Below are positions 17,029 to 35,900 of a stretch of 45,907 nt of DNA, piece after piece. The number at the start of each line of letters is the position of its first letter. The stretch's first letter is position 1. The notes beneath the pieces are model-generated. The model worked only from the letters and a program-made list of their open reading frames with translations, did no database searches and had not been told where the DNA came from. The position numbers were made by a program, and so were the translations under genes. The stretch is from sequence record SRR2962707_2488; one strand, written 5' to 3'.

Positions 17029-17753
17029 TTCAACTGACCCGTTGAAATAGCCGTGAGTTGTGATCCGGATATATTCGTAGCGCGTATTATATCCCGGCTA
17101 TTCTCAGTAATAGCGAATAAGTTTGAGAAAGAATAACGCAGAAATGCAACCCTAACCTGCACGGCCGCCGATAAGCACGATACACTTTGAAAATCTTCCA
17201 CATTAAAATCCCTGTTTCTCTAAACAGAAGATTACGCGGAACAACCAAGCATCGCTTGAGGTGGGATGGATACTTTATTTATATAAAGATATCCAAACGC
17301 ACAAAAGGATAGGCTGAATAATCCTATTGGGATCTTTGGACCAACCTCTGCCATTCATCTGAAACGCATTGCAAAACACTTGATGCCAGTATGAAACTGG
17401 CATTTTCTGCAATATTTTAATTGAGTTTTGGGGTGAATTGGATGATGGCGGTGACCAAAATTCTCCATCCAGAACGACATCAGAGCCGTCACGCCCGATG
17501 GCACCACCTGGACCAGCTCAGCGGTTGCGATGTGTCAGTCGCTGACCGCTGGTGCCTGAAAATCGGTCGGGACAGCCAGCTGCGCGGCGCAACATAAGTT
17601 GTTTTGACTTGAGGTCGCCTTAACGCCCCCCAAGATTCATCAAAGTATATCGCAGTTTATTTTCCCGAATTTACACATATATTTGCATGTATTTTTTTGA
17701 AAAAGGCGGCTACAAGGGGCACCATGCCCCCATAGAATTACGCCGCACTTTTC

Positions 17754-18467
17754 TCACGAATTTTTCTTCGCGAAGATTGCCTTCATATGCGTGTCGAATT
17801 CATTCCAGGTAATGACAGCGCGATTTCCAGCATGGCCATCGTAATACGATCTTCCGGTCGAGGTGGGAAAGCCTGCCCAAATTCGCGCGAGGTTTTCCAT
17901 GAAAGTATGACGACTGATCTGCCTTCTAATAAAGAGACTATAGCCAGCATCCTCAAGCAATATGTCGGCCAGACGGTCCTGCACGTCGTCCGTGAACAGC
18001 GTATTGTGGGACAATCCCAGCTCATGGACCAAGGTTTTTAGCGTGGCGGGAATGAACTGGTAACGCCCAATTGCGTGGGGCTGGTTCGGCGTTGCTTCAA
18101 TCCATTGATAAATTTCATCAATCGTCATCCGCGTCGGCGGCTTGGCTGGGCGAACCCTTGCGCCGTATTGTACAGCGTCATAGCCACGGTGCCCCGCTTC
18201 AGCCCAACCAATAAGATGCTTCAAGTTCGCAGTCGGCCCGGATCTCGCGCCAATTGGTATCATGCGGCGCTTCTTCCCTGATGCCTGATGCAACATCGAC
18301 GTATTCAGGTAGATGCGTTGTTGGGGATCTGTCTGCAAAACCGGAAAGGAAACAGCGGCCACCGTCGTCATGCGGAGGTCCGCGAATGTGGTGACGTCAG
18401 CCTGTGCGACCTGTGTGCCAAATACCGTAAAAAGCGAAAACACGGCAGTTGCTTTCATGATCATCAT
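17754..18467 (-). CDS. Secreted lysozyme-like (lambda-type muramidase/transglycosylase-like) protein
   Basis: Signal peptide ending AQA; LIGWAEAG, AIGRYQFIPATL, QDRLA, LARIWAGFP motifs. Confidence 0.65.
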   Translation of the reverse strand: MMIMKATAVFSLFTVFGTQVAQADVTTFADLRMTTVAAVSFPVLQTDPQQRIYLNTSMLHQASGKKRRMIPIGARSGPTANLKHLIGWAEAGHRGYDAVQYGARVRPAKPPTRMTIDEIYQWIEATPNQPHAIGRYQFIPATLKTLVHELGLSHNTLFTDDVQDRLADILLEDAGYSLFIRRQISRHTFMENLARIWAGFPTSTGRSYYDGHAGNRAVITWNEFDTHMKAIFAKKNS

Positions 18468-18719: not shown

Positions 18720-21700
18720 TCAGTTGCCGAGGAAACCGTCGAGCTGGTTCCAAAGGGAATTGTCGAGCAACAGGTTAAAGCGGAGATAGAAACCTTCTTG
18801 GTAAAGTGCATTTTGCCCCGCCAGCGTTTCACCCGCCTTGTTGTAGCCAACCGCCAGCAGCGTGCCCTTGGTCGGGACGAATCCGAACTCGGCACCCAAT
18901 CCGTTGGTCGAGTTGCCAGTGCTATCCCAAAGATGCGCCACGTTTGCACCGACCTGAAACAGGTCATTCCCGAACTCATAGTTTACGCCCGCCTGCACCA
19001 ACTGGGTCCGCGACTTAGCCGCGATGCCACCCGACACGTCGATCGCTTGGTGCTGACCGGCGTATTTGCCGTTCACACGCAGATCGGCATCGACCTCGTA
19101 AGAGGCATTCGCCGACCACAGATGGCTTTCGGTCCGGTTGTACTTTTCCTCAAGGCGATGCTCGTACCAAGCGAGAACTTCGAGGCGCGGGTCGCTCAAC
19201 GGGCGGTAGGCCGCCCCGACGCGGGTGCGCATCCGCCGTTGGCTCTTGCCGTTTCGATTGTCCAACGCGGCCCGCGTGCGGCCCAGTACAGTCAGATCGG
19301 GTGTGACCTGCCCGGCAAGGCCCAGGCTGGCGTAATAGGTTTCGCCGGAATCTTCGGACGTGGCATCGAAATCCGCGTCCCCGATCCATTCACCATCACC
19401 GCCCCCCCATTTCACCCCAACGGCCAAGCTGGTCAGTTCGGTCTCGTTCGCGTCCAGCAGACGCGCATGTTCGATGCCTAGATCAAGCGTCGTCGTCTTG
19501 TTCAGTTTAAAGTCGGCATTCAGCCCCTGAATATAGGTCGTGTCGGTGTCACCCGGGCTACGGGCCAGTTCGGTCCGACCGCTGAGCCATTCGTTCATCT
19601 CGAAGGTAAAGCCAAGCGTGTTGCGGGACATCACGGCGTCGTCGCCAAAGTGTAGTTCGACCTCGTTATACGCACGCCAGCCCAGTTTCGGTTCGCTGTA
19701 AAGGCCAAGCGTCAGTTCGGTTGCCGCGCCGCTGCCCCCAAGGGGTTGGCGCAATTCGGCCTCGATCACAGTGCCGGCCCGGTTCTGCGGCGACCAATGG
19801 GCACCCAAGACCAGTGCCGTGTCGCTTTCGTTGTGATTTTGCGTAAGATTTTGGCGATGATCAAAGCCGATGCGGCCGCGCAGTTGCTTACTTAGGGTGC
19901 GCGCATAAAGCGCTTCGAACTGCAGGCGTTTGGTGTCGTTGATCCGGTCGCGGACGTATTCGGCAGCCAGTGTCAGGTCACTTTTGCGGTTGATCGCGTA
20001 GCCGTAGCTCAGCCGGATTTGGGTGCTGCCGGGACGGGCAAGCCCACCGCGCGCCAGAAAGTTTTCTCCGGTATGGATCGCCTCGAAGCTGAGCCGCTGG
20101 CGCTCTACCTGCAGCTCGTAAGATAACCGCGCGGCAGTGTCGGCTTCGCCCAGCGCGTTCTCTGAGCGGGCCAGCTCCGCCTCCCAGACCCCGCCGGTCG
20201 TGTCCTCGTGGCGAATGTATCCCGACTGCAGCCGCTCGCGGGCCGGGTTGCCGATTGGGGCGTCGGCATGCACCGCGCGGGCACCGATGGTCGTACGTTC
20301 GCCCACGGCGTAATTCGCCTCGCCGCCATAAAGCCAGTACTTTTCAGCACCCTCATTTTCGACCTCATAGGTGACACGGATCGACACCGGATTGCCGTCC
20401 AGATGGAACTGGCGGACGGGCGCGTCAAAGGTGATTGTGTTGCGAAAGAAATCGAGAATGTAATCCGTCCCCCGACGCATCGGGGTGCTCGTCAGGACAT
20501 CGTCACCCTGTTCGTCGCGAACCAGAACTTCTACCCTCTCTGAGCCTTGTACATAGCCGCTCAAATTCAAATCATAGGGACCCGAAACGCCGCGACCGCG
20601 GATTTCTTGCACCATCTGTTCCTGCGCCGTGCGGGCCCCAAAGACAGTGACCGACACCTTGTCGTTTTCCCAATGGCCCTTTGCCCCGGTGGCGACACGG
20701 CGCATCCCGTCCAGTTTGAACGCGCTGGATTCGGGTTCGATGGCGATGTCACCGTACAGGATGTAGGACCGGCCCTTTTCCACTTTGACGAAAAGGTTTT
20801 CCGACGATTGCGCGTCTTGACCCCGTTCGGAATTATCGCCGTAGACCGGGTAATACTGGTCGCCGCGGATGTCGCGGAACAGACGATCTTCGGTGTCGCG
20901 GTCCGAGCTGTAGCGCAGGGTCAACAGCGCATCGCCACGGATCGCACCTTTCAGGTAGACCTCGCCGCGCACGCCGGTTGCCGTGTCCTCAAAGGAACTG
21001 AACTGGTCTTTGTCCAGCAATCCGTCGCTGTTCTTGCCCAGCGATACAGCACCTTCGATCACACCAATTAGAATGCGTTCGTCTAGGTCAGGGGTAAAGA
21101 TAATGGTCGCCTCTGTGCTGCCAAATGCCCCCGTCACAGTAACAAGATCCGACCCCGATACTTGCGGCGGGATCAAGTCAAATGTCGCCTCGCCATTGTC
21201 GAGGTACGCCTGCACGCCGGGGGTGCCCGCACGAATATCGTCTACGTCCCACAAGCCCAAGCGCGCATGCAGCGTCACCGTCCCCGAGGCCGGAACCGGC
21301 ATCCCGCGCACGTCGAGTACACGCACCACGACGGGCACCACTGAGCCGGGCGAGGCCGAGGCAGTTTCCGGCAGGATGATCTCGTATTTTGCGGGGGTGC
21401 CCGGTGCCATCAGGGTGATGTCTTTGCGCGCACGTTCGATGCCGAACCCGTCCCTACCGATCAGGGTCAGCGTGTTTTTTCCCGCGCCCAGTTTAACGGC
21501 TATGTATTCCAGCGCTTGGACATTATTTTTCTCCCAGCTGGTACGTTCGCCAATACGGTCAGCGCCAAGTTCGCGACCGTTCAGCAACAGCGCCAGCGTG
21601 AGGTCGGCCTTGCCCTTCACCCGGATGTTCTGGGTGTTGCGGTCGACGGTCTGACCCTCCGCAAGGTCAACGAACCCCAGTTCGGAACCCAGTGTCCGGA

Positions 21701-24458
21701 TCATCTCGTCCAGTGATTGCCTCCGGGCCGCCGCTGCGGCCACGACGGCGACATTTGCGGCCAGCGCCTTGTCTGCGGTCAGCATGTTAGGGGTCAGCTG
21801 GGTTGTCGTCGCGATACCGGATTCCCCGCGCGAAGAACGGTTCGGTGCGCGCGCGCCTTCGATTGGCATATCGGCGGCGTTGAGTGAATTTACCTTCTGG
21901 TTATCTTTAAAATGCTCGCGACGCTCTGCGACTTCGACCAGCGCCTCGGGGGTGCATTCGGCCACGGCAAAGTGTTCTGCGCGCATTTCACCGCGACGCA
22001 GCGGGATCAAACGCGAGCCACCCTGCCCGAGATCATTGGTGCGTGTAACCTGAACGCGGGTGTCTTTGGGCAAGGTTTCATTCTGCACAAGAAACGCATG
22101 GGTGACCGGACGCAAACCATAGAGCGAGTATTTTCCGTCAATGTCGGTGACGACAGTCAGGCCCTCTTGTGTAACGATCCGGACGCCCGGGATGCCGGGT
22201 TCCGACGCATCGCCCCGGATACCATTCGCATCACAATCCATGAAGACCGACCCAATGACCGTACCTTGGCGTGCCAGAACCCCACCGGAATTGTCGAGCC
22301 GGACCATAGCCCGCGCAACGTTGGATTCGCGCAGCGTTCCCGTACCCGCCTGACGACCTGACAGTACGGCGGTGTTTTCGTTGCGCCCCTCGCGTGCGGC
22401 AGCCGTGAAATGCATTACATACGTCAGCTCGTGCTCGGACAGCGGCCCGATCTGGCCAAGATCAAAGCGCATGTCCCCCCCCTGCCCGCGCGCGGGATCC
22501 TCCAGCGGTTCGCCATCCAGCATGACCGATCCCGGCACCAGCGTCACACCATGCGGCGGGCGGTCCAGCAGTTCGGCACCGATAAGCGCCTGACGCATGT
22601 TGTTGCTAAAGCCCAGCGTATAGATCACAAATTCGCCTTGGCTCACGACATCACGGTCAGTCGCCTTCTGCAACGATAGCGGTGTCCCATAGTAGGGGTC
22701 GACGGGAATGTCCGAATTATAGACCATCCCACCGGCGTGGCTAAACGCGTCACCCCAACCTGCCTCGGTCGTGATCCTGGTGAACCCGGAAAAGTCGTTG
22801 CGTGACGATGGGAATACCCATGCCGGCGCGTTGATAACGTCATAGCGGTATGTGCCTGCAGGCATTTGGCCAAAGACGAAGAAGCCGCGTGGATCGGTGA
22901 CGCTGCGCGAAATTTCGCGGTTCAAGGCGACGTCAACCAGTGCGATCGTAATGCCCTCGATTGCCGCATTGGACAGCGAGTTAAATAGAAAATTGCCCGG
23001 ATTGATCAACAGGTCGTCAGTCAGCAACGTGCCGTTGCATCGGGCAGTCGCGATCAAGGTATCGCCATCGGTGGTGGCCATCACGCTATCGCCCGGTGTC
23101 GCGGTGTCCATGCGTGCCATCGGCAAGGCGGAGGTCAAGAAGATGCCTGTGTTTGCGCCGGTCTCGGTCGCGGTCACGGTCTCAATGTCGCCAGTCTGGG
23201 CGCTGCGGATGGTGACCGTCGTCACATCAACGCCAGAGGTCAGGTTACAGCCGCCCGATGTCAGGCGCAGACGGGTATCGGTGCCGGGCGTGCCAAAGGC
23301 TTGCATGGCCCCGGTGGCGGGCTCTTCGAAGTGCAGCGCACCAGAGCTGTCTCCATTGCGGGTAAAGATCGTCGTATTCGACGCCTGCACCGCACTTTGC
23401 CCGTCATTTTCAAGATAGGCAGCCGCCGTGTTCACAACATCCACATCACCGAGCGCAGCAGGCAGGCTGACCGAAAAGACGGGATCGGTCGCACGGCCAA
23501 CGATATAATCGCCTTCAAGAAAGAAACCCACGGCATCGATGTCTTCGACCCGCCCCGGCTGGGCCGTGCGGTAGTCATGTAGCGGATCGCCAGCGCTGTG
23601 AAACAGTGCCACCATGCCGCCGGTCTGGATAAAGCTGCGAAAAACAGTGTTAAGCGGGATCACGTCCCGGACCAGCACGCCGGTGCGGACGACACCGTCG
23701 ATGCGCAGCGTTTCGCCGTCGATGGCGGAATAGCCTATGATAGACTGTTCGGAGTTATTGCGGATCCGCAACGTGTAGTCGATCACAGTCGCCGCTTCGG
23801 TCTCGCGCGCAGATTGAACCTTTTCAATCTCAAGCGTACCGCTGACAATGAGTGTCTTGCCAAGCGCTTGGCCGTTTAGAGGGGCCTGGGTTTCGATATC
23901 GGCATCGGACGACGCGGTCACAAGAAGGGTCGAGCCCAGCGTATCGCCGGGAACCGCATTTTCCGAAACGCGGAATTCATAGATCAGCTGAAGACGCTCA
24001 CCCGCCATCAAAGTAATCGGTGCCGTCAGATCGAATGCTCTTTCGCCATCATCGACAACACCGTTGCCATTCTGGTCTGCCACCAATTGTCCATTTCCGG
24101 TCAGCCCTGCGCCGGTACGGTCTTCGACGCGCATGACCGCATCAAGCGGTACGTTCCCGCTGTTCAACACTTCAAAGTGGTACTGCGCCAACGCGCCACG
24201 GGTGAGCAAAAGTTCGGAGTATCCGGTGATCTCGATGTTCGGCACCGAAAGCACCCTCGCCTCGACCGGGTTGGAGAACACGGTCTCGACGATCCCGAGG
24301 GCGATATTGAAATAGGACGATTGTGCAACGTTGCGGATTAGGGTGCCGCCTGGAACCGGGTCTGCCTTGGATGGCTGGGGAAGAAGACCACACAGCAGCG
24401 CGACGGTCTGGAAGAACGTCGCGACACCGAGGCCCGCTTTCTGAAGACAACTGCGCAC
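18720..24458 (-). CDS. Large DUF11/SdrD-B-like protein with C-terminal outer-membrane beta-barrel (putative fimbrial anchor/usher)
   Basis: Signal peptide ending SKA; DUF11 repeats (LEIEKVQ..IDYTLRIRN, LSLQKAT..VIYTLGFSN); GSVFMDCDANG..EPGIPGV; C-terminal ~780 aa with alternating amphipathic beta-strand pattern. Confidence 0.75.
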   Translation of the reverse strand: MRSCLQKAGLGVATFFQTVALLCGLLPQPSKADPVPGGTLIRNVAQSSYFNIALGIVETVFSNPVEARVLSVPNIEITGYSELLLTRGALAQYHFEVLNSGNVPLDAVMRVEDRTGAGLTGNGQLVADQNGNGVVDDGERAFDLTAPITLMAGERLQLIYEFRVSENAVPGDTLGSTLLVTASSDADIETQAPLNGQALGKTLIVSGTLEIEKVQSARETEAATVIDYTLRIRNNSEQSIIGYSAIDGETLRIDGVVRTGVLVRDVIPLNTVFRSFIQTGGMVALFHSAGDPLHDYRTAQPGRVEDIDAVGFFLEGDYIVGRATDPVFSVSLPAALGDVDVVNTAAAYLENDGQSAVQASNTTIFTRNGDSSGALHFEEPATGAMQAFGTPGTDTRLRLTSGGCNLTSGVDVTTVTIRSAQTGDIETVTATETGANTGIFLTSALPMARMDTATPGDSVMATTDGDTLIATARCNGTLLTDDLLINPGNFLFNSLSNAAIEGITIALVDVALNREISRSVTDPRGFFVFGQMPAGTYRYDVINAPAWVFPSSRNDFSGFTRITTEAGWGDAFSHAGGMVYNSDIPVDPYYGTPLSLQKATDRDVVSQGEFVIYTLGFSNNMRQALIGAELLDRPPHGVTLVPGSVMLDGEPLEDPARGQGGDMRFDLGQIGPLSEHELTYVMHFTAAAREGRNENTAVLSGRQAGTGTLRESNVARAMVRLDNSGGVLARQGTVIGSVFMDCDANGIRGDASEPGIPGVRIVTQEGLTVVTDIDGKYSLYGLRPVTHAFLVQNETLPKDTRVQVTRTNDLGQGGSRLIPLRRGEMRAEHFAVAECTPEALVEVAERREHFKDNQKVNSLNAADMPIEGARAPNRSSRGESGIATTTQLTPNMLTADKALAANVAVVAAAAARRQSLDEMIRTLGSELGFVDLAEGQTVDRNTQNIRVKGKADLTLALLLNGRELGADRIGERTSWEKNNVQALEYIAVKLGAGKNTLTLIGRDGFGIERARKDITLMAPGTPAKYEIILPETASASPGSVVPVVVRVLDVRGMPVPASGTVTLHARLGLWDVDDIRAGTPGVQAYLDNGEATFDLIPPQVSGSDLVTVTGAFGSTEATIIFTPDLDERILIGVIEGAVSLGKNSDGLLDKDQFSSFEDTATGVRGEVYLKGAIRGDALLTLRYSSDRDTEDRLFRDIRGDQYYPVYGDNSERGQDAQSSENLFVKVEKGRSYILYGDIAIEPESSAFKLDGMRRVATGAKGHWENDKVSVTVFGARTAQEQMVQEIRGRGVSGPYDLNLSGYVQGSERVEVLVRDEQGDDVLTSTPMRRGTDYILDFFRNTITFDAPVRQFHLDGNPVSIRVTYEVENEGAEKYWLYGGEANYAVGERTTIGARAVHADAPIGNPARERLQSGYIRHEDTTGGVWEAELARSENALGEADTAARLSYELQVERQRLSFEAIHTGENFLARGGLARPGSTQIRLSYGYAINRKSDLTLAAEYVRDRINDTKRLQFEALYARTLSKQLRGRIGFDHRQNLTQNHNESDTALVLGAHWSPQNRAGTVIEAELRQPLGGSGAATELTLGLYSEPKLGWRAYNEVELHFGDDAVMSRNTLGFTFEMNEWLSGRTELARSPGDTDTTYIQGLNADFKLNKTTTLDLGIEHARLLDANETELTSLAVGVKWGGGDGEWIGDADFDATSEDSGETYYASLGLAGQVTPDLTVLGRTRAALDNRNGKSQRRMRTRVGAAYRPLSDPRLEVLAWYEHRLEEKYNRTESHLWSANASYEVDADLRVNGKYAGQHQAIDVSGGIAAKSRTQLVQAGVNYEFGNDLFQVGANVAHLWDSTGNSTNGLGAEFGFVPTKGTLLAVGYNKAGETLAGQNALYQEGFYLRFNLLLDNSLWNQLDGFLGN

Positions 24459-24555: not shown

Positions 24556-27204
24556 TTAGTTGCTCACCTGAACAGTGAATTCTAACCTTGCGACCCCACC
24601 CGGCAGGATCGAGCCATGATCGCTCGATACGCTGGTCGAGGTGACCGTTGCGGTGCTACCTGCCGGGAATAGATCCTCGTCGCAAAGGCCGCCACAGTTT
24701 GTCACTGCGGTATATGCGGGCGCTGCGTCAGAGATGACGACGTTGGTTGCGGGAGAAGAGCCGGTGTTCTCTGCCTCGATCATGTAGCGTATGCACTGAC
24801 CGGGTTCGACAGGTTGACGGGTCTTGGTGAACGCGCTGTCCGGCGTAGTGGCACCATCACAATCAGCATCGATCGTCTGATACTTGTTCAGCGTCATATC
24901 CCCCGAGATGATAGTGATCCGGTCCTCGACCGCGTTGTCGGTGGTGTCGGCATCCGTAGCAGTACCCCCGTTCAGCGCCGCCCCGAGGCTGAGCGAACCG
25001 ATTTCGGTTACACCTGGCGTCGCCGTCGACGGTGTCTGCACACGGTAGATCAGCGAGATGCTATCCCCCGCAGCAAGGCCATTGACGCCGGGCGCAATGC
25101 CGTCTGTCAGGTCGTCAAAGTTGTCGATCACCGGCTCGGCTGCATCGATCACCCCGTTACCGTTCACGTCCCAAAAGATCGCGCCCGAGAAGTTGCTTAG
25201 ACCGCTTTCAAGGATTGCCCCTTCGGTGATGACTGTATTGCCTTCGTTGGTGACCGTGTGGGTCAACTCAACGATGCCACCGGGTGCGGCCTGCGCGCTT
25301 TGGTCGTCGATGATCTTTACGTCGTAGATTTCGTTGACCGTGACCTGGTTGACGATGCGGTCACCCTGACCGGACACCGAAGATACCAGCGCGATATCGA
25401 CCAGCGTATCGCTCGGAAGCGTGTCATCAGCCGGAACCACGACAACCTGGAAGGTCGAGCTACCATCTGCCGGAATGGTCCCGGTGTTGGTGGCAATGCT
25501 GCCGTTGGCTGCGCGGAACTCGACAGTCCAGCCATCAGGCAGCGCCTGAGCCAGCGACAGGTTGAAGCTGTCAGAGACCGGACCTTCGTTCTGCACCACC
25601 ATGTCGAACGTGACAGGTTGGCCTGGATCGGTTGTCGTGGTGATCCACGGATCGCCTGCGTTGGTCGGCACCGCGCCATCGCCCTCGACACCTGCAACAC
25701 CGTTCTCAAGATCGACCGTAGCTGCAAGAACCTCTCCGGAGAATTCGGCGGTCGACACATCCGACACGCCTGACGAGTCAGAGATCGTGGTGATCGTCGC
25801 CGTGTAATCGGTGGTGGCGGTCGGTGTCAGGTCGGTCGGAAGCGTCGCGATCAGGGTTACCTTGGCACTGCCTCCGATTGCGAGCGGGCCAATCGAACCG
25901 ACGACCGGGGTCACACCGTCGGCACCGACAAAGCGGAATGTCGTGCCTGCGGGAAAGTCGACGTTGGCGACCTGCAGTGTCATGCTATCGGCCTGATTGG
26001 AAAGATTGGTCAGCACAAACTCCTGACGGATCACGCCGCCCTGATAGACATCTCCGGTCTCGGTCACGATGTCGTTGTTGGCCGCATCATCATCCGTTGC
26101 CGAAGCGATGGTGCCGTTCGCGGTTCCGTCCCCGTTGATCGCCGTATCCGCAACCGCAATCGCGTATTGGTTATCGACCACGATCGAGGCGGTGTTCGAC
26201 GGTGGAAAGGCAACCCCGTCTACGTCTTGGCTGGCCACGTTGGTGATCAGGCCCGCGTTGGCAGTGCTGGCGACAACCGCTTGGAACGTCACGCTGCCAG
26301 AGCGGCCCGAAGCAACGGAAGAGATATTGAAATTAACCGTCTGTCCATCGTCGTAATCCCAGGCGATGGTTTCGCCCGACCCGTTGGTGCCATCGGCAAG
26401 CGTCGAGGCGTTGTCGTCATCCAGCGGGGCTGCCGCGTCGGACCATCGCGCCGATCCCGGCACATAGGACAGATTGCCGTCCAGAACGTCCTGCACCACA
26501 TAGTTATTCGCAGCAGCCAGACCGGTGCTGGAGTAGGTCAGGGTGATGGTCACGGTGTCGCCCGCATCAATGATGTCAGGGTTGCCGCCCGAAGCGGCAT
26601 CCGCGACCATCGACTTGACCAGTTCGACGATGGCGTCGTTCGAAATGGTCAGGGTATCCGTGTTGATATCAAGTTCAGTGCCGTCTAGCGCCGACGTCGC
26701 AGTGATGGTGATCGTGTCGGTGCCAGTCGCGGTCGACGCGACAGAGGCTTCGATGACCACACCGAACTGCTCGCCGGGAGCCAGAACCGGGGTGGACGTC
26801 AGCGGTGTCGCGCTGTCGGCAACGCCGTCCATGTTGGCATCCGGATAGAACACCAACTGCGTCGTATCAAGTGTACCGGTGTCGGCCTCGACCGCAGTCA
26901 GCAAGAAGCTGTCAGCCCCGTTGCCTTCGTTGGTGATGATGTGCGGCAGGAATGCTTTCCCACCGGGTGCAATGGTTTCGGTGTTGTCAGATGTCAGTGT
27001 GACGCCGGCAACCTGCTGCACGATCGTTTCGACCGTGTTCGACGTCACCGTGATCGTGTCACCGGCCGAGTTGGTATATGTCGCAACAGCTTGGTTGCCG
27101 ATAACTGCGCCTGCTTCGGGGGACGCGCCGAACGCAGCAGATCCGAGGGCGGCACCAACGGCTGCCGCACTTGCGGAACGCATGAAGAGAGAATGATAAG
27201 CCAA
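24556..27204 (-). CDS. Secreted multi-Ig/DUF11 protein (putative major fimbrial shaft subunit)
   Basis: Signal peptide ending AFG; Thr/Asp/Gly-rich Ig-like repeats; one complete and one C-terminal incomplete DUF11 domain; AAGGA RBS with TTG start (alternative ATG 27183). Confidence 0.8.
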   Translation of the reverse strand: MAYHSLFMRSASAAAVGAALGSAAFGASPEAGAVIGNQAVATYTNSAGDTITVTSNTVETIVQQVAGVTLTSDNTETIAPGGKAFLPHIITNEGNGADSFLLTAVEADTGTLDTTQLVFYPDANMDGVADSATPLTSTPVLAPGEQFGVVIEASVASTATGTDTITITATSALDGTELDINTDTLTISNDAIVELVKSMVADAASGGNPDIIDAGDTVTITLTYSSTGLAAANNYVVQDVLDGNLSYVPGSARWSDAAAPLDDDNASTLADGTNGSGETIAWDYDDGQTVNFNISSVASGRSGSVTFQAVVASTANAGLITNVASQDVDGVAFPPSNTASIVVDNQYAIAVADTAINGDGTANGTIASATDDDAANNDIVTETGDVYQGGVIRQEFVLTNLSNQADSMTLQVANVDFPAGTTFRFVGADGVTPVVGSIGPLAIGGSAKVTLIATLPTDLTPTATTDYTATITTISDSSGVSDVSTAEFSGEVLAATVDLENGVAGVEGDGAVPTNAGDPWITTTTDPGQPVTFDMVVQNEGPVSDSFNLSLAQALPDGWTVEFRAANGSIATNTGTIPADGSSTFQVVVVPADDTLPSDTLVDIALVSSVSGQGDRIVNQVTVNEIYDVKIIDDQSAQAAPGGIVELTHTVTNEGNTVITEGAILESGLSNFSGAIFWDVNGNGVIDAAEPVIDNFDDLTDGIAPGVNGLAAGDSISLIYRVQTPSTATPGVTEIGSLSLGAALNGGTATDADTTDNAVEDRITIISGDMTLNKYQTIDADCDGATTPDSAFTKTRQPVEPGQCIRYMIEAENTGSSPATNVVISDAAPAYTAVTNCGGLCDEDLFPAGSTATVTSTSVSSDHGSILPGGVARLEFTVQVSN

Positions 27205-27259
27205 TGCAAAGTTTCCTTGATCTTAGTGTTTAAATTCAGAGTTGGGACAGCACGACGGA

Positions 27260-27772
27260 TCAATCGACGCGGACGCGGTATGTGTTGAAGGCGGTTTCGC
27301 CTGCGTTGAGCGGTTCAGAGAAAGTCCAGCGGACAGATGCGATCTCGGCTTCTGGCAGCGGTTCTTCGTTCAGGGTGCCATCAGCGTCCGCCACCATGCG
27401 CATCGCGGGCAGTGTCGACCACTCAAGGCCTTCCTGCTCGGGATCAAGTTCGGCCTGAACCTCGAAAACCGCCTTGACCGAGGTGGTTTCGCCACCAAGC
27501 GTCAGCGTGACGCCTTGGGGCACCGGGGCCGCAATGACGATCCCCGCCATGGCGTCAGTGGTCGTGTTCTCATGGCTCAGTTGATAGTGGATGATTTCGC
27601 CCGGACGGACGGTGCCGCGCTCGGCGAGTTGCTCTTGTCCGTCCTCGGTCACTTCGACGACACGAAACGAAAACGTACTGGAAAGAGCTTCTGCGGAGGC
27701 CGCGAAACCGACCATCGAAAGTGCCGCCCCGGCGAATGCAGCCCGGGAGATCAGGGGGAGATGAATAAGCAT
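27260..27772 (-). CDS. Small secreted DUF11-like protein (putative chaperone/cap)
   Basis: Signal peptide ending AEA; RPGEIIHYQLSHEN...APVPQG...VRWTFSEPLNAGE...YRVRVD. Confidence 0.75.
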   Translation of the reverse strand: MLIHLPLISRAAFAGAALSMVGFAASAEALSSTFSFRVVEVTEDGQEQLAERGTVRPGEIIHYQLSHENTTTDAMAGIVIAAPVPQGVTLTLGGETTSVKAVFEVQAELDPEQEGLEWSTLPAMRMVADADGTLNEEPLPEAEIASVRWTFSEPLNAGETAFNTYRVRVD

Positions 27773-28254
27773 ATATGTTTCCCATTGAGGCCGGGTTCTA
27801 ATCCGACAGTTGCAATCAACGGGCTCAGCACAAGCGCCGCTTATTACTGCATCAAGGGAATTGGATTGAATTGCACTTCAGCAAAAAGGTAGGAACACAG
27901 ACCGAAAGATTTCGCTCTATTCTTTCGAATAGCGCCTCTAACCCATGGCAGCGGAAATACCGGCGAAAAGTCAGGCCCAAGACCGGGCTTCAGCAATGGA
28001 AATCGGGAAAATAAAGACTCAAGCCATTAATTTAAGTCGATAATTTCAATACTAGCGACGAAAACGATTCGTGTGCTCCCCTGTGCGCAGGCTCGTAATC
28101 CTGCACAAGGAGGCGGGCAAAAGGGTAGAAATATATCCCTTTGCGCCATTTTGTATCTATTTGGGTATAGTTCGAATGCGGATGCCTGTTTCCGGCTGAA
28201 GGGAAGGTACCATTATATCCAATTGTACAAGTACCCAACCGCACAGGCCCCTAA

Positions 28255-28713
28255 ATGTTAAACTCAATAATTGTCATCGATGGTTCACAGTCTGCCCGAA
28301 ATACCCTTGAAATCATCCTCGCCGGTTTTGGCTATAAAAACGTACGGGGCGATCAACGCGCGTCCGATGTCCTGCCCGGAATCATCGACGGCACGCTGAC
28401 CGCCGATCTGATTTTGATGGATCTCGATCTGCCCGGCGGGATCGGCTTTTGCGCCAGCGTCAAGTCTTTGCCACAGTGGCAGCACGTTCCCGTCCTTGCG
28501 ATGCAAGGCCCCGATTGCAGGACATCGCTTACCGAAGCGATGCTGGTCGGGGTCAATGACTATATCCGCAAACCGTTTGAACGTCCCGAACTGCGGATCC
28601 GGATCAAGAACCAACTGCAATTGCGGTCCGAAATCACCCACGGACGGGCACCCGTGATCCAAGTCGCCGCCGCAGCGTCACACCGGCAGCAAGGGCAGAC
28701 GGCATTGCGGTAG
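28255..28713 (+). CDS. Stand-alone response regulator receiver-domain protein
   Basis: IIVIDGS, DLILMDLDLPG, DYIRKPF; no output domain. Confidence 0.8.
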   Translation: MLNSIIVIDGSQSARNTLEIILAGFGYKNVRGDQRASDVLPGIIDGTLTADLILMDLDLPGGIGFCASVKSLPQWQHVPVLAMQGPDCRTSLTEAMLVGVNDYIRKPFERPELRIRIKNQLQLRSEITHGRAPVIQVAAAASHRQQGQTALR

Positions 28714-28798
28714 AACGTCGAATTTCGGCTACAATCCGAGTTTAGCCAGCATCAGCCTGGGCAAATACCGTATCCGGATTGCTGGGGTGGTTTCTGGG

Positions 28799-29419
28799 TC
28801 AGACAAAACCGGCGTTGCGGGCGATCATCGCGGCGTCAGTGCGGTTTCGTGCGTCCAGCTTGCGGCACAACGTCTTGACGTGCAGCTTGATCGTGACTTC
28901 CTGAAGATCAAGGTCGCGGGCGATTTCCTTGTTGGATTGTGCGCTCATCAGCCCGCGCAGCACTTGGCGTTCACGCTCGGACAGGTCTTTCTCGAAATCC
29001 GTCTCGTCCGGATCGTCCTTGCCCGACATGAAATTGACTGGCGCATAGGTTTCCCCCGCAGCCATGAACCGTACGGCATTCACCAACGATTTTGCCGGCA
29101 GCGTCTTGGGAAGGAACCCGATCGCGCCCATAGCCAGCGCCTGTTCCGCGATCAGGCGGGTCGCCGTGCCAGAAATCAGGCCCACCGGTTTGCCGCCATT
29201 GGCGTTCAGGGCAATCTTCAACCCCTCCAGCCCCTTCATACCGGGCATCGTATAGTCGAGCAGGACCAGATCGAACGGACCGTCTGACCGAATTTTTTGC
29301 AAAGCTTCTTGCAGATTGCTGGCCGGAACGGTTTGCGCCGCACCGTCCATATCCAGAAACATCGCGATGGTCTCGCGGACCATATCGTGATCGTCTGCGA
29401 TCAGAATTTTCAGAACCAT
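28799..29419 (-). CDS. LuxR/NarL family DNA-binding response regulator
   Basis: ILIADDH, DLVLLDYTMPG, LSERERQVL...SNKEIARDL...TIKLHV HTH. Confidence 0.95.
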   Translation of the reverse strand: MVLKILIADDHDMVRETIAMFLDMDGAAQTVPASNLQEALQKIRSDGPFDLVLLDYTMPGMKGLEGLKIALNANGGKPVGLISGTATRLIAEQALAMGAIGFLPKTLPAKSLVNAVRFMAAGETYAPVNFMSGKDDPDETDFEKDLSERERQVLRGLMSAQSNKEIARDLDLQEVTIKLHVKTLCRKLDARNRTDAAMIARNAGFV

Positions 29420-29842
29420 TTGAAGTCTCCTAAACGCGCCCGAGCAATTGCAGTTTCTGGTATACTAGAGAGAAAAATCTCAAAGGACACACTGCTTTGC
29501 ATCCTGACTGCGTTCATACGCGGCATTTCTTGCGACTATACTTTCGTATATGCGATTTAGCCTTATTCTCGCTCGTTCCACAATCCATGACATCCTAAAA
29601 GTAGAAATCATGCAACGCGTACCCCTTACTAATTCCGATGTCTGACACCAACCTCGACGGTCCGACAATCACATATTTTAAAAATGATAACGCGATGTCG
29701 CGCTGCGGCAAGGTCTGTCTTTGCAACATTCACCTAACGGGTAGAAATAGCAGGTACCAAACCGAGTGGATATAATGCGGGTCGATCTGGCGGCTGGATA
29801 GGATTACAATCGCGTAATCTCATACATACTAAGGGATCATCA

Positions 29843-32380
29843 ATGAACGTCGTCAGACTATCCCGCCATAATCGCACATGGGGTAGATGCCTGCTGGTTC
29901 TGGCCCTCTTGGTGGGAATCCTGGTCGCAGGGCACATAATGTTCAGCCTTTGGAAAAGAATCCACGCGATTGACAGCGCGCAGGTGGATCACGCCGAATG
30001 GGTCTATACCCAGCTCGAAGTTGAATATCTGAAACTCGACAGGGCCATTGTCAGGGCGCGATCCGGAAATCCTGGGGATCTGGCAGACTTGCGGCAGCAG
30101 TTCGATATCTACTACAGCCGTACCGAAATTGCCCAAAATGCTGGAACAACCGGAGACGCCTTTTCCGACCTTGACCGTCTTCGGGATGTTCTGGATGAAC
30201 AGGTGCAGTTGGTTCGCGCGGGCGACACGCGCCTTTTCGATGGTCTGGACGAACTGCAAAATGCGTTGGGTCAAACCGGCGACATTCCCCGAAATGTTGC
30301 ACTGGCCTCTGTCTCATTGGCGGTGGACGTGGCTAAGGCCGAGCGCGGTGAGATCGTCAGACTTCTTGAAATACTGTCTGTTGTCGTCTTGGTCGTAACC
30401 GTTGCGCTGATAAGCGCGATCATTCGGCTTTTGGTTCAGGCCAACACCGTCAGTCGGGCATCCCGCGACGCCAAAGAACACCACCTTCGGCTGGCGACCA
30501 TGCTGCGCGCGTCTTTGGATGCGATTGTAGTCTCTGATGAAAACGGGTCCATCCTGGATTTCAACGGCTCTGCCGAAGACATCTTCGGGCTGGACCGCCA
30601 GGACGTTATTGGTGGCCACTTTATTGACCTTCTCATCCCGCCACACTTGCAAGAAGAACTAAATACGGCTCTCGAAGCGTTCCGCCGCACCGGCAAACCA
30701 CAAATTGCGGAAAGCGGACGGCGCGAACTTGAGATGATCGACAGTGATGGCCGCGTTTTTCCTATCGAATTGTCGGTGTCGCTGGCCCAGAGCAAGGATG
30801 GCCCGATTTTCGTTTCCTATATTCACGACATCACGGACAGAAAGCAAAAAGAACAAGAAATCGTTCAGGCGCGCGATGACGCTCTTGCCGCTTACCGCGA
30901 AAAATCCCGTTTTTTCGCGATGATGAGCCACGAAATGCGCACGCCTCTGAACGGCGTTCTCTCGGCGCTCCAACTTCTGGGGGATGGTCGGCTGGATGCG
31001 GAGCAGCAGAAATATCTTGATGCCGCGCTGACGTCCGGGGATATCCTGTTGGGCCACATCAATGATGTGCTCTCTATTGAACGCAGCGAAGCTGACCGGA
31101 GTGAACAGCAAACGCAATCTTGCAATATGGTGGCGCTGACATCGGGTGTGATCGACAGCATGGGGCCGCTGGCGCAGCATACCGGCAATCGGCTGCATCT
31201 TGATCAAACTGGGCTGGATGATCGATGCATCCTGACCGACCCTCGGGCGGTGCACCAGGTTCTCGTGCATCTTCTCAGCAATGCGATCAATTTCAGCCCT
31301 GATGGCGACATTACCCTTCGTGCCTTGTATCGGCATGCCGACGATGAAAGCTTGCTCCTGCATTTTGAAGTCAGCGATACGGACATCGACGTGACCGAAG
31401 CTGATGTTCCTCATCCCTTCGAAGATTGTATTGCGCTCGACAGCAGCTATGAACGTCCGGCCGGAGGCAGCGGGCTGGGCCTTGAAATTGTGCGCCGTCT
31501 GGTTCAGGGGCTTGGTGGCGACATCAGGTGTGAATCCCGCGCGGGACAAAATTCCCGCTTCATTGTGTGCCTGCCCGTCACCCTCGCCTCAACATCCAAT
31601 ACGCCTGCGCCTTCAGCACCACAGGTGGAAGAGGCACACGGAAAATCGTTGCACCTGTTGGTCGTCGATGACAACCAGATCAACCGCGAACTTCTCGGGG
31701 CAATACTCAAAAGACTTGGGCACATCGTCAGCGTCGCCACCGGAGGGCAAGAGGCTGTCGACCTTGCCAAAAGCACACGGTTTGATGCCATCCTCATGGA
31801 CATCTCGATGCCCGGCATGAACGGCATCCAAGCGACCAAGGCGATCTTGGACGGCGACGGACCGAATAACCAGACGCGCATCATACCCGTCACAGCCCAT
31901 GCCCAGCCCAAAGAACGCGAGGAATTTGAAGCCGCAGGCATGAAAGGTTTCCTGCAAAAACCGCTCAACATGGAAGCGCTAAAATCTGCGTTGGCCGCTT
32001 TCTCTTCTGCTGAAAACGCGCCCGCCGAAAACCAAACTCTACGGCAACAACCTGTGCTGAACAGTGCGCATGTCACGGAACTGCGGGAATTGCTGGGGCA
32101 GGATAGGTTGAAGGATCGTATCATGATGCTGTTGCAAAGCGTCGATGCCGATCTTCCCGACCTCACAAACACGCAAACCATTTTGGATCTGCAAACACGG
32201 GCCCATGCTTTGGGCGGCATGTGCGGCATGTTCGGAGCCGAGCGTTTTCACGTTCTCCTTAGTGAAGTCGAGACCGCGTGCAAGGAAGGCAATACCCGCG
32301 AAGCGCACGAGCTTGTCAAATTGGCACCGGCGGTCTGGCATCTAACAAGAGAAGCTTGGTTGCAACAAATCGGTGCATGA
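29843..32380 (+). CDS. Hybrid sensor histidine kinase (TM-PAS-HisKA-HATPase-REC-HPt)
   Basis: Two TM segments, PAS domain, SHEMRTPLNG, REC (VVDDN..ILMDISMP..KP), HPt AHALGG; degenerate G1 box DTDID. Confidence 0.9.
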   Translation: MNVVRLSRHNRTWGRCLLVLALLVGILVAGHIMFSLWKRIHAIDSAQVDHAEWVYTQLEVEYLKLDRAIVRARSGNPGDLADLRQQFDIYYSRTEIAQNAGTTGDAFSDLDRLRDVLDEQVQLVRAGDTRLFDGLDELQNALGQTGDIPRNVALASVSLAVDVAKAERGEIVRLLEILSVVVLVVTVALISAIIRLLVQANTVSRASRDAKEHHLRLATMLRASLDAIVVSDENGSILDFNGSAEDIFGLDRQDVIGGHFIDLLIPPHLQEELNTALEAFRRTGKPQIAESGRRELEMIDSDGRVFPIELSVSLAQSKDGPIFVSYIHDITDRKQKEQEIVQARDDALAAYREKSRFFAMMSHEMRTPLNGVLSALQLLGDGRLDAEQQKYLDAALTSGDILLGHINDVLSIERSEADRSEQQTQSCNMVALTSGVIDSMGPLAQHTGNRLHLDQTGLDDRCILTDPRAVHQVLVHLLSNAINFSPDGDITLRALYRHADDESLLLHFEVSDTDIDVTEADVPHPFEDCIALDSSYERPAGGSGLGLEIVRRLVQGLGGDIRCESRAGQNSRFIVCLPVTLASTSNTPAPSAPQVEEAHGKSLHLLVVDDNQINRELLGAILKRLGHIVSVATGGQEAVDLAKSTRFDAILMDISMPGMNGIQATKAILDGDGPNNQTRIIPVTAHAQPKEREEFEAAGMKGFLQKPLNMEALKSALAAFSSAENAPAENQTLRQQPVLNSAHVTELRELLGQDRLKDRIMMLLQSVDADLPDLTNTQTILDLQTRAHALGGMCGMFGAERFHVLLSEVETACKEGNTREAHELVKLAPAVWHLTREAWLQQIGA

Positions 32381-32663: not shown

Positions 32664-32975
32664 GTACAGATGCATTTTCGCGCAGCCGGTCCCCTGACGA
32701 TCTTCGCCACTCAAAAATCCCCGGAACCCAGCGCGCTTGGGCCAATGCAACGCTATCCCAAAGCATAGCGACGCTATGCGCGGCGGTATCGTTGATGTCC
32801 CTCTGAACCTTCGCACAACACACGGCACCCTGCGACACTGGTCAGGATCGAAACCCACCGCAAAACCACGCTCCGGCAGTAAGGCCCTATGCGCAGGGCC
32901 CCTGCCCGCCTGCTGCGGAAACCAAGAACGATAAACCCGGTGCCAAACCAAAAGGCGGATGAAGTGTTCAAGCAC

Positions 32976-35900
32976 ATGTCAAAACGACTATTGCGTCACC
33001 TGTGCGGCTGCACAGCGGCGATTGCAGCGCTGGTGGCATCCGAACTGCAGGCTGGCGATTTCACGCTAGACTGGGGGCAGATCGACTGGCCGGCGGGATC
33101 ATCCGCGCCGCTGACCACCACGTTGACGGATCAATACGGGTTCGAAATTGATGCGACAGTCAATGTTGCGGGCGCTTTTACGACGGGCGGCGGTATCGTG
33201 TCGCCGGACGACACGTCCCTGCTGGGCGGCAGCGTGCCATCGCTTGGCTTAGTCTCTGACGCACCGGCCAATCTGGGGCGGGTCGGCGATGCCACGGTCA
33301 GTGCGCAACTGACCTTTTCATCAAACAGCGTTGCCTTTCCGGTAGACGGGCTGGTGCTCGACATTCTGGACGTCGACGCTGGCGACGCAAACGCGCCCAG
33401 TGACAGTTGTGACTTTATCACGGTGACTGGCACCAATGGCGATCCAACCCTGTCGGCCGTCTCGTCGACGCCGACCTTCGTCCTAGGACCCGGCGCTGGT
33501 AGCGGTCTCACCGGACCGTTGGCCGCCAATCAGGCGCAATGTATCTTTGTCGATGGGCTGGCGGGCTCTCCGACCTCGGCCAACACCGATACCGGAACCG
33601 TTCGCGCGACATTTCCGGACGGTACTGCGTCGGTCACCGCCGTTTTTGATGAATCCATCGGCAATGTCAGAACATCCCTTGGCTATGACGCCGCCGCGCG
33701 GGACATCGGTTTTCTGGCAGCCAGTTCTTTTTCCGTCGGCCAAAGCATCTCGCTGGTCAAAACCTCGGAGCCGAACGAACTTCCCGAGCCGGGAACCACG
33801 ATCACCTACACATACTTTGTCACCAACGACGGGTCGCTGCCGTTCAACATAGGGCAGGATATCGTGATCGTGGACGATTCCGTTGCCACCGTTACCTGCC
33901 CTGCGATCACCGCCGAAGTGCCGGTCGGCGGCACCCTTGAATGTACCGCTGAATATACCGTGACCGTCGTGGATGTCCTAAATGGCAGTCTGACCTCGAC
34001 GGCGACGGCGGGTATCGGCCCGATTGGTCAGACCTTCGACGACCGACTGCAATCCAACGCCGCGACACTGACCCTGCTTTATGCGCTGGGTTATGATTTC
34101 GGCGATGCCCCCCTTACCTATCTGGTGCCATCCCACGCCCTTGTCACAGCCCCGACGATCTACCTTGGCACCATTGCCCCCGACGCCGAAACCTTTGCCC
34201 AGCCTGACACGACCGCCACTGGCGACGATGTGAACAACAGCGACGACGAGGACGGCGTCACCCTGCCGCTGCTGACACAGGGCACCATCGTCACGATCAC
34301 GGTCAATGTGGCGGGCGACGGGTTTCTTCAGGCGTGGATGGACTTTGACGGCAACGGATTGTTCGCAAACGACGCGCTGGAGCGTCTGGCCACGGACCTG
34401 CGCGACGATGGCCTTGGCGATGACATCGCGGCCGGGGACGGCGAGATCCAGATCAGGATCACGGTGCCTGACGACGCAACCACCTCGCTTACCTTTGGCC
34501 GCTTCCGCTGGGCCTCCGAGGCCGGACTGGGTATCTCGGGTGCCACGCTTGACGGCGAGGTCGAGGATTATTCCTTTGTCATCGCCGCTGCAGATCTTGT
34601 CGACCGGGGGGACGCGCCCGCCAGCTATGGTGATCCGCGCCATGTGGTGGTGCCGACGATCTACCTTGGCAGCGGATCACCCGATCTCGACATCTCGGCA
34701 AAGTACTCTGCCGGTGCCGATGGTGACGATCTTGACGGTATCGACGACGAAGACGCGACGAGTTTTCCGCCGCTTGTGGCGGGCACCACCGTGCCACTGA
34801 CGGTATTGACCCACGAGACGCAGAGCTTTCTGTTCGACTTGGGCCTGCCTGTGCTGGTGCCGGGTATCACCAACCTGCAAGTCTGGGTCGACTTCGACCA
34901 GAACGGTACTTTCGACCCGGCTGAACAGGTGGCGGTCAACTACCGCGATGGTGGGACCGGCGACACCGATGGCAGGTTCAACAACCAGATCACGCTGAAC
35001 ATTCCCGTTCCTGCGGACGCCATCGCCGGCCCCACCTATGCACGGCTGCGGTGGTCCACGACCAGCGGCCTGATTACTGATCCATTCGACGGGCTTAACT
35101 TGGACGGTGAGGTCGAAGATTACTTCGTCACGGTGATTAACCCCAACGGTCCGCTGACCTGTTCTTCGAATTTCTATATGGTCGCGACTGAACCGGGCCA
35201 GAACCTGCCCGCGCTGGACGAGCTATCAATCAGCGAAAGCGGCGGAATCTATACGCTGACCCATGTTGATCTGCCACCCAACTACACGGGCAACTTCCTT
35301 GTTACCGGCTGGGGCTATAACGAGTTGGACGGCTTTATCTATGGCGTACGCCAAAGCCCCCGGTCGCTGATGCGGATCGACGCGTCGGGCGCTGTGACCG
35401 AGGTCGCGGACCTGTCCACCCTCAGCATCGAAGCCCCCGACACCAGTTCCGACATCCTGCCCAACGGTATCATGATCTACATGTCCGGGTCCGACTCTAG
35501 TCGGTACCAACTGCTCGATATCAGCGACCCGGCAAATCCGGTTGCACTGGGGGTGCTGACCGCCACCGCCGGCGCGACCTATAGCCGTGACATGGCCTAC
35601 AACCCGCTGGACGGGCTGATCTACTTCTTTGACACCTCGCGCAACTTGCACTTTTTCGATCCCAACAACGGCGTACCGGGGTCGATCACAGTCGGTCTGC
35701 TGGCAAACGTGCCCCTGGCCGAGGGCAAGTTTTCGATGGACATCGACTCGGTCTGGTTCGACGGCTCGGGGTACATGTACGGCTTTGACAACCAGTCCCG
35801 GCAGGTCTTTGCGGTCGAGGTCGGCGCAGAGGGCAACCGCCCCGCCAGCTACGAATTTATCGAGGTACAAGGCACCGTCGACAACATGACCTATCAGGGG

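Follow-up and report, generated by a model that had tools for sequence, protein, structure and literature searches.

A small DUF11-like protein lacking isopeptide-forming residues as a candidate non-covalent terminal subunit of a putative split-CLIPPER fibre in marine Sulfitobacter

Introduction

A DNA stretch of 45,907 nucleotides (the window) encodes, beside several large DUF11-type proteins, a 170-aa protein that resembles their terminal domains and lacks the residues expected to form a covalent bond. What such a small, apparently non-reactive protein does next to subunits that seem built to lock together is the question raised by this locus. An earlier note on the window, made from its letters alone, had regarded the protein as a reversible chaperone that binds donor strands non-covalently and prevents premature polymerisation in the periplasm. 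The solved DUF11 domain, renamed CLIPPER, has nine strands and a Lys715-Asn806 isopeptide bond, with Asp748 as the presumed catalyst, and the triad is assigned to only part of the DUF11/CLIPPER family (PMC12617251). The gene, its homologues and its neighbours were analysed here with profile searches, structure prediction and a survey of related loci.

The small gene and its product

The ORF of 170 aa was confirmed on the minus strand (Table 1), and the motifs quoted in the earlier note were all found, namely LSSTFSFR at residues 30-37, PGEIIHYQLSHEN at 57-69, IAAPVP at 80-85, and the pattern VRW...LNAGE...YRVRVD, which reaches the stop codon. A signal peptide of the Sec type can be read by eye from R10, a hydrophobic stretch and A27-E28-A29 ahead of L30, and A27 and L30 are invariant in 29 orthologues. 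The AF2 pLDDT is below 50 for residues 1-26 and about 94-98 from residue 31. The gene is genuine and conserved: a near-length search returned 85 close homologues at E ≤ 0.001 and a length-agnostic HMMER scan returned 652 representative clusters at the same threshold. Among the 150 HMMER matches listed, all full-length ones lie in proteins of at most 320 aa, and giant DUF11 proteins match the core alone (query residues about 48-100). Database labels for the homologues are confined to 'hypothetical' or 'DUF11 / TIGR01451 repeat protein', and matches in the ESM Atlas to unnamed or DUF11-labelled small clusters. The best protein match, 98% identical, is labelled Sulfitobacter sp., and the corresponding locus of Sulfitobacter sp. 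CW3 (L001) is 99% identical; the host of the window is a marine Sulfitobacter (Roseobacter group). Scans for promoters and terminators near the small gene gave no signal above shuffles.

Table 1. Coordinates of the features discussed, in positions of the window.
Feature	Position	Strand	Basis
Small acceptor-only protein gene (170 aa)	27260..27772	-	ORF, homologues, AF2
Signal peptide, residues 1-29	27686..27772	-	Read by eye; cleavage likely A27-E28-A29 / L30
Mature domain, residues 30-170, CLIPPER/DUF11 strands 1-7 only	27263..27685	-	HMM alignment
Family-specific 40-residue insertion K100-L139	27356..27475	-	Between HMM positions 59 and 60
882-aa donor-plus-acceptor subunit ('mid', shaft candidate)	24556..27204	-	ORF, Pfam, orthologues
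N-terminal donor hairpin of the 882-aa protein, residues 33-63 (AVIGNQAVATYTNSAGDTITVTSNTVETIVQ), invariant Asn37	27016..27108	-	
C-terminal truncated CLIPPER acceptor of the 882-aa protein, invariant Lys774 and Asp826	24556..24903	-	
1912-aa protein: N-terminal donor-like hairpin, Ig-like domains, C-terminal giant beta-barrel (anchor/pore candidate)	18720..24458	-	
Donor-like hairpin of the 1912-aa protein, residues 38-69 (GTLIRNVAQSSYFN...SNPVEARV)	24252..24347	-	Pattern in 42 orthologues
Predicted outer-membrane beta-barrel, about 32 strands counted in the model	18771..20390	-	AF2
1647-aa acceptor-only protein (tip adhesin candidate): GEVED, DUF7507, DUF11	32889..37832	+	
Receiver-only response regulator	28255-28713	+	Pfam
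LuxR-type response regulator	28799-29419	-	Pfam
Hybrid PAS histidine kinase with Hpt	29843-32380	+	Pfam

The operon of the small gene is separated from the gene of the 1647-aa tip candidate by the regulatory genes (28255..32380). A response regulator and a kinase also lie upstream of the small gene in two distant loci (L088 and L106).

Fold and split point

The register of the domain was determined with a purpose-built HMM of 124 positions, constructed from 339 DUF11 repeats drawn from giant proteins in the HMMER scan and from the window's own proteins. In this model Lys, Asp and Asn occupy positions 8, 42 and 96, which corresponds to the spacing of Lys715, Asp748 and Asn806 given for CLIPPER (PMC12617251). 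The mature small protein aligns to positions 10-89 with an E-value of 4.5e-15, and its last residue is position 89. The C-terminal domains of the 882-aa and 1647-aa proteins align to positions 9-89 and 11-89, each ending at the protein's own C-terminus, and Pfam DUF11 covers them over profile positions 9-84 and 13-83 of 114. The end point that the earlier note had seen to be shared with the shaft and tip acceptors is thus exact, with all three proteins stopping at position 89. The same arrangement recurs in 43 operon proteins from 19 distant loci, in which the last DUF11 domain ends at positions 86-90 and at the C-terminus of the protein. The small protein thereby stops before the last two strands of the fold (8-9), leaving the nine-strand CnaA-like sandwich incomplete.

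Curated profiles recognise the protein below their thresholds. Pfam DUF11 (PF01345) covers residues 51-98 with 15.7 bits against a cut-off of 24.6, and TIGR01451 scores 18.9 against a cut-off of 24; judged by sequence, the small protein is a divergent DUF11/CLIPPER relative and not a curated member. Its C-terminal DUF11 domain ends at the split point and its neighbours start with a strand 8-9 hairpin, which places it among the split-CLIPPER fibre acceptors, an operational class set here and not a published family. No Pfam or NCBIfam match to the PapD-like families (PF00345 / PF02753) was obtained at E ≤ 0.1, and the protein has a single domain, where PapD-like chaperones have two Ig-like ones, and no donor motif.

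The AF2 monomer is a single 141-residue domain of 11 strands, four more than a truncated CLIPPER. Structural alignment with VIA-align returned pilin-type domains, carbohydrate-binding modules (CBMs) and other sandwiches at Z 7-9, a range that the tool calls common, and CLIPPER 9IFR at Z 7.9 with an rmsd of 2.0 over 88 aligned residues. Foldseek against the PDB gave no match to the small protein at E ≤ 0.001, and profile searches of PDB sequences with two small-family alignments yielded nothing significant. TTHA1873 (7WRK) was set aside as a structural neighbour (Z 8.6) without sequence relationship, and DrmA, the best PDB-sequence profile match (E 0.003 over 55 residues), was judged a chance hit. 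Among eight longer matches examined, no natural unsplit form joining a small-type domain to strands 8-9 was present; one relative, P0146, consists of two small-type domains in tandem, without an intervening hairpin. The 40-residue insertion K100-L139 carries the most conserved motif of the family, comprising F103, E104, W118, P122 and R125.

Loss of the reactive residues

The mature small protein opens directly with strand 1 and has no donor hairpin. Its A82 falls in the Asp column, HMM position 42, as the earlier note had proposed from the IAAPVP motif. The conserved first-strand Lys is likewise missing, and no first-strand column is Lys-dominated across 189 small-family proteins. The isopeptide triad is therefore absent from the small protein, which has Ala82 for Asp, no conserved first-strand Lys and no Asn-bearing strand, and its description as acceptor-only and non-reactive is borne out by the lack of a donor motif and of both reactive residues.

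The Asp column was compared over 46 acceptor domains aligned to the HMM. Asp is present in 29 of 29 pilin-type acceptors (27 proteins of distant operons plus the 882-aa and 1647-aa proteins of the window). The 17 small-type rows, which omit four of the 20 distant small matches (L092, L099, L100 and L104) that failed a criterion on the C-terminus, carry Asn in ten, Asp in four, and Ala, Ile and Val in one each. In the wider, redundant set of 189 small-family proteins the column holds A in 86, G in 64, V in 12, N in 11, L in seven, D in five and M in two. The earlier note had expected consistent loss of Lys and Asp among homologues and would have counted homologues with both residues against its reading; most homologues indeed lack Asp, but the residue is retained in five of the 189, a small minority.

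The four Asp-retaining proteins among the 17 small-type rows are gammaproteobacterial. In three of them (L088, L102 and L106) and in L101, which bears Asn, strand 1 contains a Lys within the motif ITAEK, of uncertain structural equivalence; the fourth, L089_3917, has a Lys in IEALK whose register is not fixed, and equivalence is not claimed for it. In a tree of the acceptors, built on only 80 shared columns and rooted at the midpoint, one branch separates small-type from pilin-type domains with 96/87 support, and the members that keep Asp sit on the shortest branches, at the base of the small clade (three of these branches measure 0.09-0.16). These short-branched basal Asp-keepers suggest that the small family descended from a covalently locking subunit.

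Donor hairpins and the neighbouring proteins

The strands that the truncated domains lack appear at the N-termini of other proteins of the operon. Just past its signal peptide, the 882-aa protein aligns in exact register to HMM positions 91-117, a weak match with E 0.0085 among six sequences. The hairpin (residues 31-67) is almost invariant across 31 orthologues, those with clean starts among 45 complete genes, and Asn37, Lys774 and Asp826 are invariant in all 31. The N-terminus of the 1912-aa protein aligns to positions 91-103 with E 0.24, which is non-significant alone. Pfam gave no match to these two short N-terminal hairpins, the sequences being too short. As judged from the HMM registers of C-termini and N-termini together with the CLIPPER strand order, the domain is split between proteins, with strands 1-7 (Lys, Asp) at C-termini and strands 8-9 (Asn) at N-termini.

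Across 12 tabulated operons the donor motif occurs in none of the 13 small proteins, in all 26 pilins and, by pattern, in nine of the 12 giants; in the giants of L088 and L106, among the three that the pattern missed, Ser replaces Asn. The gene directly after the small gene has a distinct donor type, x-N-x-V-T-V-x-Y, and the donor of the giant resembles that of another pilin. These donor classes, read by eye from the table, would fit a tip-to-base order of small protein, adaptor, shaft and giant.

In the AF2 model of the C-terminal 812 residues of the 1912-aa protein, a beta-sandwich precedes a very large barrel (mean pLDDT 72). The best Foldseek matches to the barrel are LptD and MtrB, with E-values down to 4.6e-7 and TM-scores of only 0.2-0.28, and no usher appears among the 50 matches listed. 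The 1647-aa protein has no donor and closes with a truncated CLIPPER domain in which Lys and Asp are retained. At least 16 of 48 Roseobacter loci contain tip-like genes whose C-terminus is complete; all 22 ORF rows keep Asp, with some genes doubled among these rows as alternative starts and many others running off the fetched flank.

Predicted complex with the 882-aa hairpin

The mature small protein (residues 29-170) was co-predicted with residues 28-72 of the 882-aa protein by ESMFold2, run without supplied alignments. Three runs gave ipSAE values of 0.78, 0.77 and 0.78 against 0.01 for the best of three controls, above a mark attained by 51 of 78 solved complexes and two of 108 mismatched pairs, but also by 10 of 12 close cousins of the true partner, in a calibration without peptide partners. 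At least 97% of contacts are shared between the runs, and the partner pLDDT is at least 77. In the predicted complex, donor strand 1 (39-43) is paired with residues 78-82 of the small protein, the strand ending at the Asp position, and donor strand 2 (55-58) with strand 1 of the small protein (32-34); Asn37 of the 882-aa protein contacts Tyr63 and Pro85. No residue of the small protein from 89 to 168 takes part in the predicted interface, so the conserved insertion lies outside it and would be free for another role.

According to this model, the small protein is compatible with completion of its own fold by the 882-aa hairpin. Because cousins pass the calibration, the result speaks for compatibility and not for a choice of the small protein over the 882-aa or 1647-aa acceptor, and the preferred acceptor is not thereby identified; the score can also reflect the predictor's memory of the intact fold. 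The donor-strand binding proposed earlier is supported in silico, in that the hairpin is predicted to lie where expected.

Operon and genomic distribution

The small gene is the first of its operon in the window, where the upstream neighbour is divergent, as had been claimed; this position is not general, however, and one type of alphaproteobacterial operon begins with a pilin gene. In the window, 55 nt separate the small gene from the next one. In 45 of 48 Roseobacter-group loci a complete gene for an 868-898-aa protein lies directly downstream of the small gene; in the remaining three, the next gene is cut by the contig end in one, and two end before the gene. A giant of about 1900-2000 aa follows as a single ORF in 42 of the 48 loci, is split in two ORFs in L018 and L034, is cut in L040, and lies beyond the contig in three.

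Linkage extends well outside this group and spans Alpha- and Gammaproteobacteria. Under strict criteria, 13 of the 19 distant loci fetched contain a small gene, two or three pilin genes and one giant gene in the same orientation; the pilins, all of which begin with a donor and finish in a truncated acceptor, are 326-443 aa long, and the giants 1639-2018 aa. Two more loci are linked, L091, whose giant and pilin-like genes were missed by the strict filters, and L098, whose giant falls shortly beyond the end of the sequence retrieved. Housekeeping genes surround the operon in L089 and L090, two loci in which no acceptor-only protein other than the small one is encoded. Unlinked small genes were found in L092, L096, L099 and L105; the genome of L092 (G210) has a giant 355 kb away, and that of L096 (G326) has a full operon elsewhere.

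In a sample of 401 genomes of the phylum, 32 were matched by a profile built from 62 distant small proteins and 41 by a profile of the giant's C-terminal 812 residues. Both occur together in 27 genomes, compared with 3.3 expected if they were independent, with the small protein alone in five and the giant alone in 14. Of six places fetched from giant-only genomes, four are on contigs cut just upstream and are hence uninformative. Another, two-gene architecture was seen in L108 and L109, where a gene for a 2570-2958-aa protein precedes one for a 1163-aa barrel protein, without a small gene.

Function of the small protein

The core that the readings have in common, an acceptor-only protein that binds a donor hairpin, is held to be probable. 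Within it, the small protein is tentatively read as an acceptor-only subunit that terminates the fibre as a non-covalently held end cap or minimal tip, a reading to which we give slightly less than an even chance. Structural proteins end in CLIPPER strands 1-7 with Lys and the catalytic Asp, and strands 8-9 with Asn, absent there, open the next protein directly past its signal peptide; the subunits would plug head to tail and probably be locked by an isopeptide bond. In a linear chain of this kind, a single donor hairpin would stay unoccupied at the end opposite the barrel-anchored 1912-aa protein; this hairpin, the 882-aa N-terminus, would be taken up by the small protein through strand complementation. 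Since the bond-forming Lys and Asp are replaced in this lineage (Phe34 region, Ala82), the cap would be held non-covalently, a weakness that a subunit free of load may tolerate. The analysis shows, in silico, a truncated fold, the loss of the reactive residues, linkage in the operon and a confidently predicted complex; from these we infer the position of the cap, export to the surface and covalent bonding among the remaining subunits.

A chain of donor-plus-acceptor subunits ending in a donor-only anchor would need exactly one acceptor-only subunit. Roseobacters have two candidates, the 1647-aa protein and the small protein, and several gammaproteobacterial loci have only the small protein nearby. 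A non-covalent terminal cap fits slightly better than a reversible chaperone, given that a donor-acceptor chain needs a cap and that four slow-evolving relatives keep Asp. A structural end cap also explains the facts with fewer assumptions than a donor-capping chaperone, which would leave the incomplete acceptor domains unprotected. Several observations count against the cap: a first gene, presumably abundant in product, suits a stoichiometric factor better than a single-copy cap; the AF2 monomer is predicted very confidently without a donor and with four extra strands; five of 32 small-positive genomes have no barrel match and some small genes are unlinked; the donor-to-HMM alignments are weak (E 0.0085 for the 882-aa and 0.24 for the 1912-aa protein); and the conserved 40-residue insertion has no explanation under the cap reading.

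The chaperone itself would be a reversible periplasmic holdase, transiently masking the donor hairpins of the 882-aa and 1912-aa proteins. Covalent polymerisation would be blocked before export, and the donor would be passed to a reactive acceptor at the barrel; we regard both the masking and this hand-over as unlikely. A complex without Lys and Asp could in principle dissociate, donor binding is predicted, and the small gene, first in the operon, always accompanies a system whose operon shows neither a PapD-like chaperone nor another accessory gene; the conserved insertion, which takes no part in the predicted interface with the donor, could be a docking element for the barrel protein. Known donor-strand systems, however, chaperone incomplete acceptors and not donor hairpins, and the small protein lacks a strand that it could donate. 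Complexes formed by strand complementation usually persist for very long, as in chaperone-usher pili, and in the five of 189 relatives that keep Asp binding would be irreversible if Lys is also in place. We know of no system that uses a strand-accepting, donor-masking holdase. If such a protein were confirmed, this reverse-polarity chaperone would represent a new control of self-catalysed covalent polymerisation in Gram-negative bacteria, with locking permitted only at the barrel.

There are two further explanations. The small protein may be a partner of the barrel, either capping the 1912-aa hairpin while no fibre is attached or acting as an assembly factor or plug of the barrel of about 32 strands, in the manner of LptE with LptD. 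This is rather improbable, even with the strong co-occurrence of the two proteins (27 genomes against 3.3 expected), a 1912-aa start of the same hairpin class as that of the 882-aa protein, and nearest solved folds, LptD and MtrB, that each house a partner protein; LptE is a lipoprotein seated within a barrel of 26 strands, whereas the small protein has no lipobox Cys, the TM-scores to LptD are only 0.2-0.28, and homology to the truncated acceptors with an end exactly at the split point argues for strand acceptance. Least probable of all is an independent secreted beta-sandwich of DUF11 ancestry, for example a carbohydrate or surface binder, that takes no hairpin. A monomer that is predicted to fold confidently alone, with its four extra strands and conserved insertion, would suit this explanation, as would the unlinked copies, the five genomes with a small protein and no barrel match, the tandem relative P0146 without a hairpin between its domains, and structural neighbours that include CBMs and generic sandwiches at Z 7-9. 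Operon linkage across Alpha- and Gammaproteobacteria, a C-terminus exactly at the split point throughout the family and the confident predicted donor complex speak against it.

Comparison with known systems

As a terminal cap, the small protein would resemble the pilin domains of FimH and PapG, which accept a strand and give none; it could accordingly occupy the distal end only. PapD and FimC are comparable as small, periplasm-targeted Ig-like proteins encoded with subunits and a large outer-membrane barrel, but PapD donates its G1 strand, whereas the small protein would receive strands. Chaperone-usher pili differ further in exchanging one strand where two would be exchanged here, in the absence of homology (Pfam finds no PapD or fimbrial families) and in their ushers, which the 1912-aa barrel does not resemble in the fold search. 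The engineered SpyCatcher/SpyTag pair, a split CnaB2 isopeptide domain whose large part and strand-bearing peptide reassociate, is similar in its division into a large and a strand-bearing part; the split is natural here, and the small protein would be a Catcher without reactive residues, from which no bond is expected.

The CLIPPER crystal structure 9IFR (PMC12617251) shares with the small protein the core motifs PG..i.Y.l...N,.P.G and v.W and the last strand. The small protein differs from it in being a stand-alone mature protein of 141 residues and not a tandem stalk repeat, and in having strands 1-7 only, no triad and an additional 40-residue insertion. Filaments built by donor-strand complementation are said, in the report on the archaeal thread, to need a terminal subunit (PMC9715654). 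The thread subunit Saci_0406 likewise assembles head to tail by donor-strand complementation and has a small co-transcribed putative cap, Saci_0405; this cap, however, has a donor tail and no acceptor site and hence caps the opposite end, and the thread belongs to another fold family in an archaeon with no outer membrane (PMC9715654). The 'exchange and lock' assembly of BsaA from Clostridium perfringens, as described in the abstract, involves strand insertion followed by a spontaneous intermolecular isopeptide bond, with the bond-forming residues kept in only a subset of the BsaA/TasA family (PMC11580942). BsaA differs in its TasA-like fold and Gram-positive host, and the same abstract describes no acceptor-only, non-reactive member (PMC11580942). 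No published description of split DUF11/CLIPPER fibres was found in the literature searched, which left most subscription journals outside its coverage.

Significance

An adhesin domain that is split in nature and locks itself appears to underlie the fibre, and the small protein would offer a handle on how covalent assembly of the fibre starts or is held back. A non-locking binder of the same hairpin would be a natural control for the isopeptide chemistry, showing which residues make the bond, and could serve as a non-covalent counterpart to engineered Catcher/Tag pairs. The distinction between cap and chaperone would reveal the direction in which the fibre grows. If the reading as a terminal cap is right, the small family marks the distal end of a fibre type widespread in Proteobacteria.

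Structural features of the giant protein and its variants

In the structure model, the predicted C-terminal barrel of the 1912-aa giant protein comprises approximately 32 strands, more than the 26 of the LptD barrel. Its similarity to LptD and MtrB is loose (Foldseek TM only 0.2-0.28), with no usher among its 50 best matches listed. In two Roseobacter-group genomes, the giant gene is represented by two ORFs (1173 and 537 aa in L018; 896 and 1028 aa in L034), which may reflect a frameshifted gene, a pseudogene or faulty assembly. A variant architecture occurs in genomes G061 (L108) and G141 (L109), where a 2570-2958-aa protein is followed by a 1163-aa protein bearing a terminal F.FKFD motif identical to that of the giants, with neither the small gene nor pilins in the neighbourhood.

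Genes surrounding the putative fibre operon

Regulatory genes precede the small gene (see table), and L088 and L106, two distant loci, likewise have a response regulator and a kinase upstream of it. The two ORFs downstream of the operon matched no Pfam family; the 237-aa product is secreted-looking, and the 650-aa product is acidic, with a hydrophobic C-terminal tail, …GIMLALFPVLALAGFAV. Opposite the small gene, on the plus strand, the 216-aa ORF was rejected as a shadow frame, with all homology carried by the minus strand.

Features of the putative fibre locus
Feature	Coordinates	Strand	Remark
Two ORFs (237 and 650 aa)	15076-18467	-	Downstream of fibre operon
Predicted C-terminal barrel, 1912-aa protein	18771-20390	-	Structure model
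Acceptor domain, 882-aa protein	24556-24903	-
216-aa ORF	27242-27892	+	Shadow frame
Hybrid PAS histidine kinase with Hpt, LuxR-type response regulator, receiver-only regulator	28255-32380		Between fibre operon and 1647-aa gene

Acceptor and donor domains

In the 882-aa protein, the acceptor domain carries four invariant cysteines (C782, C804, C837 and C841), probably forming disulfides of the type reported for many CLIPPER domains; the small protein contains no cysteine. P0146, a 320-aa match to the small protein from the length-agnostic HMMER scan, comprises two small-type domains in tandem (residues 38-174 and 181-317); the linker that joins them is about 6 residues long and contains no strand 8-9 hairpin. 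Across the distant operons (L088-L106), donor hairpins sort into classes, with the x-N-x-V-T-V-x-Y type belonging to the pilin encoded directly after the small gene. The giant's donor hairpin there resembles that of a different pilin, not the one adjoining the small gene, and gene order in these operons may mirror the tip-to-base order.
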